This document shows positions 17,908 to 26,590 of a stretch of 64,000 nucleotides of DNA, one piece after another; the stretch's first letter is position 1; each line of letters starts with the position of its first letter. The DNA comes from Spirochaetia bacterium (GTDB lineage: Bacteria > Spirochaetota > Spirochaetia > UBA9216): assembly GCA_963675665.1 (NCBI GenBank), contig OY776510.1, forward strand, positions 3,424,001 to 3,488,000. The letters run 5' to 3'. The notes under the pieces were generated by a model. It was given only the letters and a program-made list of their open reading frames with translations. It had not been told where the DNA came from and made no database searches. The position numbers and the translations under genes were made by a program.

Positions 17908-18892
17908 TTCCCGGCTGCGCAAAGTATTTATTAAGCATATCTAACACTTTTACCTTGATTTCTTCAAGTGGGTATTTGCTTTTAAATCCTGCCGCGGTTT
18001 TATGACCTCCGCCGTTATAAATCTGGGCAATGAATGCTACGTCAATATTACCCTTTGAACGGAGAGAACAACGGAGGATGCCTTCAAGATTTTCCTTGAA
18101 AAAAACCGATACTTTGATCTCTTCACTTTTAAGAGGAATATTAATAAGAGAATCAGCTTCTTCATAAAGGGCGCCGCTCTCAATAATATCTTCTTTGCGC
18201 ATTGTCTGAACAGCAACATGATTGTCATAGAAGAACTCAAGAGTTGAAAGAACTTTGGACTGAAGCATAAGCGATGATATTGAATTGCTCTCATAAAGTT
18301 TTGAGTAAATGAAATTCGGGTTAACTCCGAGTCTTACACATGATTCTGCGATTGAGAAAGTCCTTGCTGTTGTTTTGGGATAAATAAAAGAACCAGTGTC
18401 GTAGACAATGCCCAGATAGATTGCAACGGCCATCTCGTATGAAATTTCAATCTTCATTTCATTAAAAAGCTCAAACAGCATTTCGCATGTCGAGGAAGCT
18501 TCGCTTTCAATATGATTTGCTGTCGAAACCGAATCTCCGCCCTCGTGGTGATCGAAAATAAAATAGTTTTTTACTTTGGAAAGAACGTTTAATTTTATGG
18601 AACCGATATTGTTTATATCGTTTGTATCAAGAATGAGAAGCACCCAGTCGGATATATCATCAGGAAGCTGACTATCATCCTTGTAAAGTTCAATTATATT
18701 GTCGATATCAAGAAAATAATATTTTTCCGCCATAGGATCAGCATTAATTATCTTTATCGTTTTACCTAAAGTTTTTAGAGCAAGATATGCAGCAATCTCG
18801 CTGCCTATTGCGTCGCCGTCAGGGGTTTCATGTGCAGTGAGAATGAACTTGTCATGATTATTAATAAAATCAGCTATCGCTTGAAATCTCAT
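17900..18892 (-). CDS. DHH/DHHA1 phosphoesterase (NrnA-like oligoribonuclease/pAp phosphatase)
   Basis: HETPDGDAIGS, LDT, DHH, YDTGSF, SLRS, GGGHKTAAG. Confidence 0.9.
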   Translation of the reverse strand: MRFQAIADFINNHDKFILTAHETPDGDAIGSEIAAYLALKTLGKTIKIINADPMAEKYYFLDIDNIIELYKDDSQLPDDISDWVLLILDTNDINNIGSIKLNVLSKVKNYFIFDHHEGGDSVSTANHIESEASSTCEMLFELFNEMKIEISYEMAVAIYLGIVYDTGSFIYPKTTARTFSIAESCVRLGVNPNFIYSKLYESNSISSLMLQSKVLSTLEFFYDNHVAVQTMRKEDIIESGALYEEADSLINIPLKSEEIKVSVFFKENLEGILRCSLRSKGNIDVAFIAQIYNGGGHKTAAGFKSKYPLEEIKVKVLDMLNKYFAQPGND

Positions 18893-20051
18893 TAGTTTTA
18901 TTTTTTTTCCTTTCATCGTCGTCTTTATGCAGAATAAGGTTCCTGATAAGTATAAAGGCTATTATACCTGCAATGACAAGAATTACTATAATAATTATAA
19001 GCCAATTGAATCCGCCGATCACGTCTTTTGATTCATTTTTTTCGTTTTTTATTACGTTTTCAGTTTTACTGGCTATTTCAGAATTCTTCTCCGAACCCAA
19101 GTTACAGGAAAAGACAGCCGGAAGAAAGGGGGTGTCTCCTTCAAATTTGAAGATGACTGTACCATCAGTATTTTCAGGTATAATTCCGTTGAGCACTTCC
19201 GATGATAATGTGATATGAATATCGATTGAACTTTCAGGACTTATTGTAGTCGAGTATTTATTATCAAGCAGATGATAATTGCCGCTGCTGTTCTGGAATG
19301 TGATTTGTTCTATGATGACAGTCCTTTCCGATACATAACCTTCGCTGGAAAGAGAAAGGCTTAGAACGCCCCTGGTAATTTCGAAATTATCTGCTGTTAC
19401 CCTGCCGATAATTTCCGACTGACTGATTGGCGGCGGGAGTTCACCGGTAAAATCAAGCGTTTTGTGTGTAGTCGCAAGTTCTTCGGCAAGTTCTTCTACG
19501 GCCGTATCTGTTCCAATCCCCAAAATCATAATTTTCCAGCCTTCGCGCTGAATGGTTTTTGTGTTTTCAAGAAATTTGTGATTAAAGCTGCCGTCCGGGG
19601 TGTAATAGGGACTTTCAGGTGGGGCTTCCTGTTTGCCGTCGGTCAGCAGGATAAGATATTTTCGGTCGAAACGCTGTTGCGTGTCGTTTACAGCAGAATC
19701 AAGCCTGTCAAGAGCATTTCCGATATCTGTAAACCGGCCGTCGGCAGGTATAGCCTTTATAGTATTCATTATGCTGTAAATATTATTTTCTTTGACTATG
19801 CCGTCAAATACAAGATCAGCGTTACCGTAGAACTGAATGAAAACAAGACGATCTCCGGGAATGAGAAAGTCGCTGATAAAATATTCGTTTATATAGGACG
19901 TAACATCATCGATCTCTTCTACCATGGATTTGCTTTTGTCAACGACCAGAAACAGTTCGATATTCTCTGTTCTGGTATCTGCCGAAACGGTAATGACATT
20001 TGCCAGTAATAGAAATAAAGCCGTTATTAAAATTGTAAATTTTTTATACAT
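18870..20051 (-). CDS. vWA-domain membrane protein (Tp0750-like)
   Basis: Signal peptide, MIDAS DKSKSM, TDIGNAL, LLTDG; C-terminal TM anchor. Confidence 0.8.
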   Translation of the reverse strand: MYKKFTILITALFLLLANVITVSADTRTENIELFLVVDKSKSMVEEIDDVTSYINEYFISDFLIPGDRLVFIQFYGNADLVFDGIVKENNIYSIMNTIKAIPADGRFTDIGNALDRLDSAVNDTQQRFDRKYLILLTDGKQEAPPESPYYTPDGSFNHKFLENTKTIQREGWKIMILGIGTDTAVEELAEELATTHKTLDFTGELPPPISQSEIIGRVTADNFEITRGVLSLSLSSEGYVSERTVIIEQITFQNSSGNYHLLDNKYSTTISPESSIDIHITLSSEVLNGIIPENTDGTVIFKFEGDTPFLPAVFSCNLGSEKNSEIASKTENVIKNEKNESKDVIGGFNWLIIIIVILVIAGIIAFILIRNLILHKDDDERKKNKTNEISSDS

Positions 20052-20193
20052 GCGTTTTCCTGTTAAAATAATAGTAACACGATGTTTTTTGATTAAAAAG
20101 CCTTAAAACTTATAAAAAAAAAAAAAACTTACTTTACATATCAGCATGGTTATTGATAATCTGTATACTGATAAAACTAGTAAGGAGAGTCAA

Positions 20194-22248
20194 ATGGGAA
20201 GCGTAGATTTACCAAAAAGTCCAATGGTATTCCACCCGGAAAAAAGAAGTGCGGTGGGTTCCAGGAACTCTCTTGCCCAGGAAAGCAGGGACCAACAGGC
20301 TGAAGTAGAACGGCTGCTTGAAGAAGAAGTCGACAAAGTAATAAACCATATGACAGCAAAATTACCCGATGAAGTTCTTTCAGAACTTGATGTAATGGGA
20401 GGTTTGAAAGAAAAGGTTTATAATTACTTCAACCAGAATTACCAGAACATGTTCAACCGTTATATTGTAACTGCTGAAGATGAAATGGTAAAAAAGGTAA
20501 GAAACTTCGTTGATAAAGAGGAAATGAAGGTTCTTACAAGATACACCCCGAAAGAAATAGCTACACTGCTTGAAGAAGTAGGTGGAATGGATCGCTTCAA
20601 TACCGGCGAAATTGAGAAATCAATTGTAAACATGTACGGACACCTGCAGGGACATATACAGCGTGGTATGAATGATCTTGAAAACCTGACCAATTCACTG
20701 CTGAGACAAAAAACGGATGTTGGTGCTTTTATCAGAGGCGAGAACGCGTATTCGGTTGTAAAATGTTCATTCAAGGACAGTATTCAGAAACCTAAAACTG
20801 TATGCAACGTAAAACTGTCAGTCAATATTCTTGATTCGGAACTGATAAGTCCAATCTTTCATTATCAGGCAACTGTAGAGTATTTGATTAAGGATTTGAT
20901 TTCAAAACAGATTATCGATGCAATCGATAAGGAAATCGAAGTTTTCAAGGATGAAAGACTCGACAAGGGGCTTGAAGAATTAAACGACAGTGAAATAATC
21001 TTCACCAAGATGGGGAAGGTTGAAAACCACACATCCGATGATGTCAACAATGCAAAATCAGCACGGTACAGCTACATTTCAAAGAGCATAATGGAAAAGG
21101 TTGAAGGCCTTCGGGCCGAGATTGATCCTGAAGAATTCGATCCGCTTAATATCAGGGAAAATCTTAAAAAGATTATGGATATCGAGAATATTCGTAACAG
21201 AGGGTATAATACCGCCATTAACTCAATTACAAGTATTCTTGATACTTCAAAGATGGGTTATCAGTATATAGAGAACCTTAAAAATGCACGCGAGCTTGTA
21301 ATTCGTGAATACGAAGATACAGACGATGCAACTTTACCTGATGAACGTTACAAAATAAGAATGAAATACTACGATAATGCACAGCTCATCGAAGAAAGAA
21401 AAGCCTATGATGTACAGGTTAAATCTTTTGAGGTTGAAGTTGAACACATCTGGGACGTTCTTGAAATGGTATACGTAGACGGAAAGAGAATGAAAAGAGT
21501 CACTGACTTTGAAGATCTCTCTAAAATCTACAAAAACAAGGTTAAGAAAAAAATAAAGGTAAAAACCGGTGATCCGGTTTACGAAGATATAGAAAAAAGC
21601 TGGGATGAAGTATCTTTTGTAGATGCTGCTGAAACTGAAGTAGAAAAAATGAACAGGACTTATGTTTTCCAGAAAGATAAACTGCATAAGAAACTTGTTA
21701 TGATGAGAGAAAAACTTCAGGAGATGTACGGTTACAGGTATCCGGTTCAGAGAAGGGTAATGGAAGACAGACTGGCTTTTCTTACTTCTGAATTTGCGAA
21801 ATTTGATTACATCATTAATCCGTATCATATTCAGCCGGGACTCCTTCTTGATGTTGATATTACTTCAATAAAAAGAAAGAAAGCGACTCTGGACGGTATG
21901 GCTAATGTTCTCAATGAATTCCTGCACGGTGTTTCCAAAGGTTTTCAGGATGCAGCATTCGCAGCCTTCTCAAGAAGAAGATCGACCGTACGTGAAGATA
22001 TAGACATGAGCTTTTCATCAGATCTTGAAGAAGAAGATGCGGGGCACCAGCAGTCTTTGGGTTCATCATATCTTGATATGTTGAATGCGCCTGCAGAAAG
22101 CAGTCCTGCTGAAACAACAATTAAAGAAAAAGCACCGGCCAAAAAAACAAAAGCTAAATCTACTGCCAAATCAAAAGGCGTTGTGGATAATGATAAAACA
22201 AAAACTAGACGTGGCAGGCCCAGGAAGAGTAATTTGGATACTATCTGA
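20194..22248 (+). CDS. cfpA: Cytoplasmic filament protein CfpA
   Basis: N-terminus [29 protein letters not shown]...[26 protein letters not shown] matches treponemal CfpA as recalled; AAGGAG SD before ATG 20194. Confidence 0.93.
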
Positions 22249-22270: not shown

Positions 22271-22298
22271 AATCCCCTGTTGAGAAACAGGGGATTTT
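22271..22298 (+). terminator. Intrinsic terminator/stabilising hairpin after cfpA
   Basis: AATCCCCTGTT-GAGA-AACAGGGGATT followed by a short T run. Confidence 0.75.
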
Positions 22299-22316: not shown

Positions 22317-23318
22317 ATGAATAAAATACTTCGCGTTTATGATAACCTATCAAGCAGGCAGGGGTTTAATGACTCTTTGCTTCATTTTCAGTCTGTAATG
22401 GACATAATTTCTGATTTTGAAGAGGGATATAATCTTGCAGATATACTTAACAGTCTTTTATCTGCCAAAGATATTCAACAGGGGCAGGTAGCTTCAATTG
22501 TTTCGGCTCTTCTGAATGATAAATACGGCTATTACAGCAAATCCGGAAACCTTTCAGTAACAACACACGATTTTGAAACTATTAAATCGGAATTAAAAAA
22601 ACTAAAGGCATTTGATTCTGTTATATGCTATCACCATCCCGAATTGGGATATCTTGTTATTAATCCAAAAAATGAACAAAGCTGGGATGTAACCAACGAG
22701 TTGAGAAAAAATGAGTTTGTTACTGTTTTTGTAGGTACCTTTTCAGACGAGAAAAGAGAAAATGTTCCCAGGGACAAAGTAGCGGAAAAGATCTTTGAAA
22801 TAATAAACGGCAAGAAATCAGTTTTATCTGATGTTATGAAAAAGGGCAGTTATAAGTATACTCCTTATGAAGCTTATGAAGATGAAGAAGAGTATGAAGA
22901 TGAACAGGAATATGAAGATGAAACGGAACCGGATGAGGAAGTAGAAACAGTACAGCCTAAACAGGAGCCGCAAAAGAGCAGCGGATCACAAAAAATGACG
23001 CCGATGTATTCAGTTCCTGTTACCAACGAGTTGTTTCATAACGGTAATGTTGAGGCCTGGAAAAGAATTATTCAGAGTTACAATGCAAAAAATCCGAATC
23101 TTGAAGTACATATTTTTTATGATGGAGAGAGGATTTTAAATATCGCTTCGCTTTTCAAGTGGGGAAAAGTAAAACACGGCAGTGCTATTTTGTTTGCCGT
23201 AGCAGGGGATGATATAAAGGATGTAGCAAAACTTCAGAAATATTTGAAACAGGGTGCAAGTCATCAGTTCGAAGCTTTTCTGAAATTCCCTGTTAATACG
23301 GTAATAAATCTTTTCTAG
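22317..23318 (+). CDS. Conserved spirochaete protein (TP0747-like position) with acidic linker and C-terminal HPr-like domain
   Basis: GAGG SD and ATG 22317; C-terminus VPVTNELFH...YDGERILNIASLFKWGKVKHGSAILFAVAGDD follows the HPr pattern by eye. Confidence 0.6.
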   Translation: MNKILRVYDNLSSRQGFNDSLLHFQSVMDIISDFEEGYNLADILNSLLSAKDIQQGQVASIVSALLNDKYGYYSKSGNLSVTTHDFETIKSELKKLKAFDSVICYHHPELGYLVINPKNEQSWDVTNELRKNEFVTVFVGTFSDEKRENVPRDKVAEKIFEIINGKKSVLSDVMKKGSYKYTPYEAYEDEEEYEDEQEYEDETEPDEEVETVQPKQEPQKSSGSQKMTPMYSVPVTNELFHNGNVEAWKRIIQSYNAKNPNLEVHIFYDGERILNIASLFKWGKVKHGSAILFAVAGDDIKDVAKLQKYLKQGASHQFEAFLKFPVNTVINLF

Positions 23319-25971: not shown

Positions 25972-25984
25972 TCAGCTTTTTGAT

Positions 25985-26027
25985 AAAAAAAAGCCGGTTG
26001 TTAAAAGATGTTACAACCGGCTTTTTT
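25985..26027. terminator. Bidirectional intrinsic terminator
   Basis: A-run-GCCGGTTGT...ACAACCGGC-T-run between convergent genes. Confidence 0.85.
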
Positions 26028-26041
26028 GAATTTAAAATCGA

Positions 26042-26590
26042 TTAGAAAATGCTGAATTTTTTTATAGCCTCAATAACAAGTTTTGCTGCTTCCTGAGCGT
26101 CCCTTTTGGGAACCTGAGCTTCCCTGTTGAATGTTTGAACAAAAAAGAACTCAATTGTTTCAAAAACATCCGGAAGATTATAAAAACAAAGTGCGAAGTT
26201 AATACCGGTCGGTTTTAAAATTGTAAATGAAGAATAGGTGACAAGAGGTTCTTTCGGGACCATAATCTTGTACTGATTTTTGGCATTATGTATATTCAGT
26301 TCACTGAATCTGAAGGGGATGGAACTTCCATGTTCACGGGATACGGGCTCCACATATTTTCTTGAATACATGGTTGGTTCAACAAGAATGTACAGTTTGC
26401 AGCCGTCAGTCTGAAAAGTAATACCTTCGTCGCTTGCAGTAATATTTTTAACACCGCCGTAAGCAACAACTTCATATATAGAGTAAGGTGAATTATTCTT
26501 AAAAAAGGACGACACTATATAACCGCCGTCATGCGGAAGCTTACCTTCATGATAAGCCTGAAAAAGATCCAAAGCTTTTGTTTGAGCCAT
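26042..26590 (-). CDS. Hypothetical protein
   Basis: 182-aa ORF with GGAGG SD; no recognised motif. Confidence 0.7.
   Translation of the reverse strand: MAQTKALDLFQAYHEGKLPHDGGYIVSSFFKNNSPYSIYEVVAYGGVKNITASDEGITFQTDGCKLYILVEPTMYSRKYVEPVSREHGSSIPFRFSELNIHNAKNQYKIMVPKEPLVTYSSFTILKPTGINFALCFYNLPDVFETIEFFFVQTFNREAQVPKRDAQEAAKLVIEAIKKFSIF

Follow-up and report, generated by a model that had tools for sequence, protein, structure and literature searches.

The 64,000-nucleotide stretch analysed here (the window) derives from a Spirochaetia bacterium (GenBank assembly GCA_963675665.1, contig OY776510.1) and contains a gene of the TP_0747 family, here called gene X, which lies between cfpA, encoding cytoplasmic filament protein A (CfpA), and a gene for a paralogue of pyruvate phosphate dikinase (PPDK). 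A first-pass annotation of this DNA had singled out positions 22990-23318, the C-terminal third of gene X, as a cryptic HPr-like domain, and the peptide it quoted, the His codon at 23037, the NIAS stretch and the acidic run are all present as described, at the C-terminus of the X open reading frame (ORF). Structure prediction supports, with moderate strength, an HPr-like fold for this C-terminal domain (C-domain). X stands in the middle of a set of three linked spirochaete genes (cfpA, X and the PPDK-like gene), and this linkage hints at an undescribed phosphotransfer or adaptor module. The features of the locus are collected in Table 1.

Table 1. Features of the gene X locus, in window coordinates.
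Feature	Position	Strand	Basis
Gene X, TP_0747-family protein, 333 aa	22317..23318	+	ORF list; homologues
N-terminal three-helix part of X, residues 14-69	22356..22523	+	DSSP, full-length model
First predicted HPr-like alpha/beta domain of X, residues 72-167; active-site position without conserved His	22530..22817	+	
Predicted disordered linker of X, residues ~186-224	22872..22988	+	pLDDT, alignment
Second predicted HPr-like domain of X (C-domain), residues 225-333, extremely conserved	22989..23315	+	Column identity, model, structure searches
His241 codon	23037..23039	+	Residue directly before helix A
PPDK-like paralogue, 878 aa	23335..25971	+	TIGR01828, PF00391, PF02896
cfpA, cytoplasmic filament protein A	20146..22248	+	NF040882 cfpA_ASD
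11-bp stem-loop, terminator-like or attenuator-like, between cfpA and X	22271..22296	.	
Terminator-like stem-loop, 9 pairs, after the PPDK-like gene, between convergent genes	25973..25996	.	
182-aa ORF convergent to the PPDK-like gene	26042..26590	-	tblastn in 57/80 loci
Membrane protein with von Willebrand factor A (VWA) domain, divergent from cfpA	18870..20051	-	PF13519, PF00092

Gene X is a real, conserved gene. Its frame is open from 22302 or 22317 to 23318 on the forward strand, and the ATG at 22317 is where its homologues start, which makes the product 333 residues long. In a collection of 5.8 billion proteins, 3026 of 4489 candidates are X homologues at E ≤ 0.001, and tblastn against contigs from one genome per species shows that at least 553 of the 598 pattern matches, among the matches listed, encode a relative of X. 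The Pfam family PF27497 (precomputed as PF27497.1) is present in the window's own protein and in all 120 homologues listed, every one of them named hypothetical and drawn from Spirochaet- records; its name is TP_0747_N, and Atlas clusters carry this name in 92-98% of their members. PF27497 is absent from proteins consisting of the C-domain only, and by its name and distribution it covers just the N-terminal part of X, which had previously been taken for an unknown domain of about 185 residues. The C-domain has no Pfam family among the Pfam models queried.

A full-length model of X, predicted from a 31-sequence alignment (mean predicted local distance difference test score, pLDDT, of 77), begins with three helices at residues 14-35, 40-49 and 55-69 (DSSP assignment; block pLDDT 68-94), followed by an alpha/beta domain, the linker and the C-domain. 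Ten-residue blocks score mostly 88-95 in the N-terminal region and 70-88 in the C-domain. The N-terminal part also appears to adopt an HPr-like alpha/beta fold, rather than being the unrelated effector or localisation module proposed earlier, and hhalign of residues 70-170 against 225-333 (probability 0.19%) gives no sequence sign that the two HPr-like folds are duplicates. Between them, pLDDT falls below 50 at residues 189-222. The linker, which includes the YEDEEEYEDEQEYEDE run, is modelled as disordered. In the window's protein it is acidic and Tyr-rich (YEDEEE run), as the first-pass annotation had it, but this composition is confined to close relatives: in other members the linker is Lys/Ala/Pro-rich and differs in length and charge, its alignment columns being mostly gaps or of mixed composition. 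The C-domain has a mean column identity of 80% across 25 sequences, the loci of which share 64-92% CfpA identity with the window.

Profile searches of the PDB found no solved structure related by sequence to X or its C-domain. The best PDB row, 5zc3_B (an oomycete RxLR effector; E 1.5e-4), covers two short helical stretches and was taken as a motif-level chance likeness, as were the multi-stretch matches P0351 (named as related to Bacillus collagen-binding/SpaA pilin), P0361 and P0365. The ESM Atlas, queried with the C-domain alone, returned one unnamed 121-residue cluster at 0.83. An internal start at Met227, where many database proteins of 104-107 residues begin, was dropped, as it has no obvious Shine-Dalgarno sequence by eye and the Met is replaced by Thr in a divergent lineage; most of the short entries come from short contigs. 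In one genome (G332; L108:332-1260) X is split by a frameshift within the linker, the N-domain frame continuing into out-of-frame sequence and the C-domain lying in another frame (126 residues), an arrangement that may reflect faulty sequencing, a pseudogene or a genuinely split gene.

The motif parallel with HPr drawn in the first-pass annotation is not above chance as sequence, since Pfam, PDB-profile, hhalign and BLASTP tests were all negative. A Pfam scan gave no match of X to the HPr family PF00381, even at E ≤ 10; a 25-sequence C-domain profile searched against all PDB sequences at E ≤ 10 retrieved nine sequences, none of them an HPr; hhalign of this profile against the 88-residue HPr of the same genome returned a probability of 0.09%; and BLASTP of X against that HPr reached E 0.72 over six residues elsewhere in the protein. 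The HPr genes of this genome are two short ORFs of 88 and 94 residues, with a third match inside a 525-residue frame. The 88-residue HPr is canonical (GIHARPA, NAKSIMG) and is encoded near 912 kb of C1 (L081:1483-2758, minus strand), directly downstream of a 329-residue ORF that by eye resembles HPr kinase/phosphorylase (HprK). Two genes of Enzyme I (EI) size and two longer genes for enzymes utilising phosphoenolpyruvate (PEP) are also present. Canonical EI genes and separate canonical HPr genes occur both in this genome and in 5/5 other genomes tested that carry the cfpA-X-PPDK-like triad.

Resemblance to HPr was found at the level of predicted structure. Modelled alone from an alignment widened with distant stand-alone relatives (35 rows), the C-domain reached a pLDDT of 94.5 and a predicted template modelling score (pTM) of 0.88, and the model falls into the fold class tested, an open-faced beta-sandwich of the order beta-alpha-beta-beta-alpha-beta-alpha. 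As the first-pass annotation anticipated, HPr and Crh lead all three structure searches with this model. In the Foldseek search of the PDB they occupy ranks 1-21 (E 0.007-0.07, probability 0.69-0.99), with a template modelling score of 0.68 for the best target and no row at E ≤ 0.001. Superposition of the model covers 77-84 of 83-89 HPr residues at 2.0-2.9 Å. The order of secondary structure elements is common to HPr/PtsH (PF00381), Crh and NPr. In the model a His stands directly before helix A, probably as in HPr, and the conserved face of the C-domain corresponds to helices A and B. In contrast to HPr, the modelled helix A is about five residues longer and an extra C-terminal helix is present; the domain forms the C-terminal end of a 333-residue two-domain protein, shows no detectable sequence similarity, and is encoded beside cfpA and a PPDK paralogue instead of genes of the phosphotransferase system (PTS).

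The His in question, His241, is residue 17 of the C-domain model, with helix A assigned by DSSP to residues 18-34, and range offsets place it opposite HPr residue 14-15. Ser278 (codon 23148-23150, at the end of NIAS) is the first residue of helix B. In HPr itself, His15 and Ser46 (the latter a regulatory site in bacteria that use HprK) lie before helix A and at the start of helix B, respectively, and His241 and Ser278 probably occupy these places in the modelled fold. A hidden Markov model of the C-domain, run over 380 collected proteins, identified 322 strong members (≥120 bits), the remaining 58 being weak matches to fragments and distant relatives. Conservation of the His among orthologues, which the first-pass annotation had proposed as a check, is borne out: at the His241 position the strong members have H in 320 cases, S in one and a gap in one. 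The His287 position is occupied by H in 278, N in 17, R in 10, T in four and S in three. Domain residues N13, F16, N18, G19, N20, E22 and W24 and the segment L55-G64 are as invariant as His241, and the invariant residues cluster in V11-K25 (loop and helix A) and L55-G64 (helix B and loop). Because these neighbours are equally invariant, His241 belongs to an invariant face to which helices A and B and the adjoining loops contribute. The helix-A/helix-B face is the one that HPr presents to its partners, as seen in complexes with the N-terminal domain of EI.

A C-domain profile search of 1.84 billion cluster representatives returned only 131 proteins at E ≤ 0.001, the tail of which consists of stand-alone proteins of 108-147 residues, coming, where named, from 'Deltaproteobacteria'/SAR324 records of metagenome-assembled genomes. 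A metagenome scan with an alignment of these stand-alone proteins found 29 loci, 22 of them stand-alone and seven divergent cfpA-X-PPDK-like triads (L132-L138), in which CfpA and X share 36-42% and 31-33% identity, respectively, with their window counterparts; the X proteins of these triads are 274-297 residues long and have a short linker. The His is present in 7/7 of these divergent orthologues, all of which keep NE(L/F)FHYGNVEAW, and His287 is replaced there. Among the stand-alone relatives, 0/21 have His at the aligned position (E 5, G 4, T 3, K 3, S 2, V 2, A 1, R 1), and some His lies within two residues of it in 7/21. Because it is kept in the divergent triads and absent from the stand-alone relatives, the His tracks the cfpA/PPDK-like context and not the fold. 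The stand-alone genes (L110-L131, ~108-182 residues) follow an AICARFT-type gene in 5/5 loci examined and precede a gene for a UbiE-type methyltransferase in 2/3, a context unrelated to cfpA or PEP-utilising enzymes.

Gene X starts 68 nt after cfpA, whose product matches NF040882 (cfpA_ASD) over residues 21-625 with 1183.3 bits, well above the cut-off of 500, and the PPDK-like gene, which encodes a relative of EI, starts 16 nt downstream of X. This gene context, the strongest available, had gone unremarked in the first-pass annotation. In the best 80 genome loci related to the window, as counted by tblastn, cfpA lies upstream of X in 77, the three misses having X at a contig start, and the PPDK-like gene lies downstream in 79, the one miss being at a contig end. 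In a sample of 401 Spirochaetota genomes, in which kin are not independent and the X and cfpA lists were compared by eye, the C-domain profile matches 144 genomes and the cfpA model 148. Both are found in 143; X alone occurs in one (G048, with 76 nt between X and the end of a contig). Five genomes have cfpA alone (G338, G261, G278, G385 and G400), and these are partial matches or drafts (80-510 contigs; completeness 82-100%). Both genes are missing from whole groups (such as f20, 0/75; f25, 0/38; genus g8, 0/24). X is still directly before the PPDK-like gene in 5/8 loci where cfpA is non-adjacent (G011, G039, G325, G347 and G010). In family f47 (L085:8138-9466 on the plus strand, L084 and L086), a gene for a 442-residue coiled-coil protein of EIVEELARKELIDRDRII-type repeats begins no more than 15 nt after X; this protein is not CfpA-like by BLASTP (E 0.066) and has no meaningful NCBIfam match. 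In Treponema denticola microarray data, cfpA (TDE0842), the conserved hypothetical TDE0843 and the putative PPDK gene TDE0844 are listed as repressed together (PMC3914990, Table 5).

The enzyme encoded downstream of X falls on the PPDK branch, with 633.2 bits for TIGR01828 compared with 102 bits for TIGR01417, and it has the three-domain layout of canonical PPDK (TIGR01828 model positions 15-865), with the catalytic His motif and the PEP/pyruvate domain well kept. In contrast to canonical PPDK, it stays below the curated TIGR01828 cut-off of 843.45, and its PF01326 match, at 20.3 bits against a cut-off of 27, is far weaker than that of the canonical paralogue. The latter, encoded elsewhere in the same genome and 33% identical to the window's protein, scores 1317.8 bits with TIGR01828 and E 1.3e-54 with PPDK_N. 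Both kinds of PPDK are present in 4/5 other genomes tested, the fifth (G102, 1.1 Mb) having only the type linked to X (X-type). We compared eight canonical spirochaete PPDKs with 24 X-type sequences, counting a canonical-invariant column as kept when it is retained in ≥90% of the X-type clade. By this count, 16/154 columns of the nucleotide domain are kept and 79/154 are lost, as against 22/58 kept in the linker and His domain and 87/126 kept in the PEP/pyruvate domain; an earlier count with five canonical sequences agrees. LGGKGANLAEM, VSVRSGAAVSMPGMMDT and NAQGEDVVAGIRTP are replaced in the X-type sequences, GIRTP is deleted in all 24, and the nucleotide-domain motifs GGKGA, VRSGAAVSMPGMMD and GIRTP are replaced or deleted across the clade. 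The catalytic His442 (codon 24658-24660) is invariant in the PPDK-like alignment, and GGxxxHAxVVAR is kept. Judged by its sequence, the ATP-grasp (nucleotide-binding) domain of the PPDK-like enzyme is degenerate.

In one complete genome (G347; C1:2249885-2251645; L090:6594-9427, minus strand) the PPDK-like ORF is 586 residues long and has no nucleotide domain, matching PF00391 and PF02896 only; its product shares 52% identity with residues 319-872 of the window's PPDK-like protein, and there is a 4-nt overlap between the start of the ORF and the stop of X. The cfpA match of this genome lies far off, inside a 2159-residue open frame with one TAA. In families f28, f36 and f14 (for example G018:C2:21603-22880) the X-type enzyme has 965-972 residues and its N-domain profile match comes in two pieces, which points to an insertion of about 90 residues in the apparently degenerate nucleotide domain. 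The X-type N-domain profile matches 145/401 genomes at E ≤ 1e-40, and 138 of these belong to the 144 genomes that carry X; the remaining seven matches are weak (1e-41 to 1e-47), and the three inspected are canonical PPDKs by sequence. Strong X-type matches are confined to X-bearing genomes. As in the EI-HPr pair, a PEP-utilising phospho-histidine enzyme (PF00391 and PF02896) is encoded beside an HPr-fold protein, and the G347 enzyme is also of EI size, with these two domains only. Unlike EI, the PPDK-like enzyme lacks the helical HPr-binding subdomain and usually keeps the degenerate ATP-grasp domain. A complex prediction for the PPDK-like enzyme (878 residues) with the C-domain (109 residues) scored 0.02 against a mark of 0.32, which speaks neither for nor against binding.

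Several further features surround the triad. The stem-loop between cfpA and X is listed by the scanner on the minus strand; read along the plus strand, TTTTAAATT comes after the stem. For the 182-residue ORF beyond the PPDK-like gene, neither Pfam nor NCBIfam gives a match; it is conserved at 43-87% identity in the related loci where tblastn detects it (57 of the 80) and may belong to the same module. The VWA gene on the other side is likewise a conserved neighbour (61/80 loci by tblastn). CfpA residues ~626-700 (22021-22245), outside the family model, form a basic, Lys/Ala-rich tail containing TRRGRPRKS, which by eye looks like an AT-hook, and residues 648-677 give a weak match to Rv3852_fam (E 0.1). 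Mutants of cfpA are described as having chromosome condensation and filamentation phenotypes (PMC3398590), and this tail may be relevant to the condensation phenotype.

How the three products might act together was considered in the light of these observations. We put first, as a tentative reading, that the C-domain acts as a phospho-acceptor of the PPDK-like enzyme in the manner of HPr and EI, with X tied to another component, because the enzyme keeps, like EI, the parts for PEP-dependent autophosphorylation on a swivelling His domain, its nucleotide site is lost or drastically remodelled, and an HPr-fold protein with an invariant His adjoins it. The C-domain would dock by its invariant helix-A/helix-B face onto the enzyme, which, having lost a working nucleotide site, would autophosphorylate from PEP on His442, and the phosphoryl group would be taken up on His241. 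The N-terminal part and linker would connect to another component, for which the CfpA filament ribbon is the prime candidate: the strict co-occurrence of X and cfpA points to a role at the filament for the far end of X, both here and if X serves as an adaptor (see below). A number of points weigh against phosphotransfer to X. X has no detectable sequence relationship to HPr, and His241 is matched to the HPr position only by the DSSP helix start and range offsets. HNGN stands in place of HARP, as the first-pass annotation had noted, so that the Arg17 of HPr is missing: the position two residues after His241 is G in 319/322 strong members. The Ser46-like residue, contrary to what had been claimed, is not kept, with S in 134, T in 125, A in 62 and N in one of the 322. 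The invariance of the whole patch (N13, F16, N18, G19, N20, E22, W24, L55, F56, W58 and G59) means that the invariance of His241 would fit a pure binding surface equally well. On the enzyme side, the lost motifs are taken as ATP and phosphate binders from work on the C. symbiosum PPDK, the canonical reference set comprises eight spirochaete sequences only, and the X-type enzyme may still have to serve as a real dikinase in G102, which has no other PPDK. In f47, X adjoins neither cfpA nor the PPDK-like gene (3/3 loci, in small genomes), although the X-type enzyme is still encoded elsewhere in these genomes. No phospho-acceptor downstream of X is known. The first-pass picture of a dedicated phosphocarrier insulated from the standard PTS reaches further than these observations. 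A full second PEP-driven His-to-His phosphorelay apart from the PTS in spirochaetes with cytoplasmic filaments, in which a PPDK-derived, EI-like enzyme whose nucleotide domain is dead or lost would phosphorylate the double-HPr-fold TP_0747 protein, itself acting on or at the CfpA ribbon, seems unlikely to us, if not negligibly so.

Nearly equal in standing to the phospho-acceptor model is the possibility of X serving, without being phosphorylated, as an adaptor or regulatory subunit, whose HPr-like folds would bind the enzyme and the CfpA ribbon or another target. Such a role would suit two folded domains on a disordered tether of variable length and charge, a surface patch that is invariant as a whole and not in its His alone, the missing Arg17 and unconserved Ser46 equivalents, and an N-terminal HPr-like fold with no His at all at the active-site position; the His-less stand-alone relatives are evidence that the fold can do its work in the absence of this residue, and both the strict co-occurrence with cfpA and the adjacency to the enzyme are accommodated. 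It accounts less well for the choice of residue, since His is uncommon as a helix N-cap and yet is kept in every triad-linked orthologue examined, including the 7/7 at ~32% overall identity in which H287 is lost, and the enzyme would retain a phospho-His and PEP site with no recognisable site to receive the phosphate. The linkage to cfpA could also be read on its own, X being a structural accessory that bridges or anchors the filament, with the PPDK-like adjacency a matter of conserved gene order only. X and cfpA occur together in 143 of the 401 genomes and singly in six, cfpA is directly upstream in 77/80 loci and in the seven very divergent metagenome loci, X precedes the coiled-coil repeat protein in all three f47 loci, and the title of Izard 2004, as it appears in the references of PMC3398590, mentions 'bridging and anchoring components' that had yet to be identified in treponemal cytoplasmic filaments. 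This accessory role is nevertheless rather improbable: when cfpA moves off, X stays with the PPDK-like gene (5/8 loci), the two being separated by 16 nt here and overlapping by 4 nt in G347, a stem-loop stands between cfpA and X, and the X-type enzyme shares the phyletic pattern. That X is an ordinary PTS HPr paralogue phosphorylated by EI is hardly credible, despite its HPr-like fold and His position and a canonical EI in its own genome and in 5/5 other triad genomes. PF00381 does not match at any threshold tried (hhalign, 0.09%), separate canonical HPr genes are present in its own genome (two short) and in 5/5 others, Arg17 is missing, and X was not seen beside PTS genes in the 80 loci, in a search that covered the five window neighbours only.

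The PPDK annotation of the cfpA-linked enzyme is one on which metabolic reconstructions of reduced treponemes depend. The TP_0747/TDE0843 family is a conserved 'hypothetical' both in treponemes, including the agents of syphilis and periodontitis, and in free-living spirochaetes. Literature searches returned no work on the function of this family, with expression data for TDE0843 only; the sources on cytoplasmic filaments, in the parts accessible to us, yielded no partner protein, and a search linking 'HPr-like' and 'pyruvate phosphate dikinase' found nothing related. What appears to be new is an HPr-fold family that sequence methods cannot see, in a new partnership. If the predictions hold, X would offer a first molecular entry point to whatever accompanies the CfpA filament, and the annotation of the cfpA-linked 'pyruvate phosphate dikinase' would come into question; were the phosphorelay true, the sole 'PPDK' in T. 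pallidum-type reduced treponeme genomes (at the TP0746 position) would not be a dikinase. Even if X is only an adaptor, it would still be a candidate for the unidentified filament-associated components.

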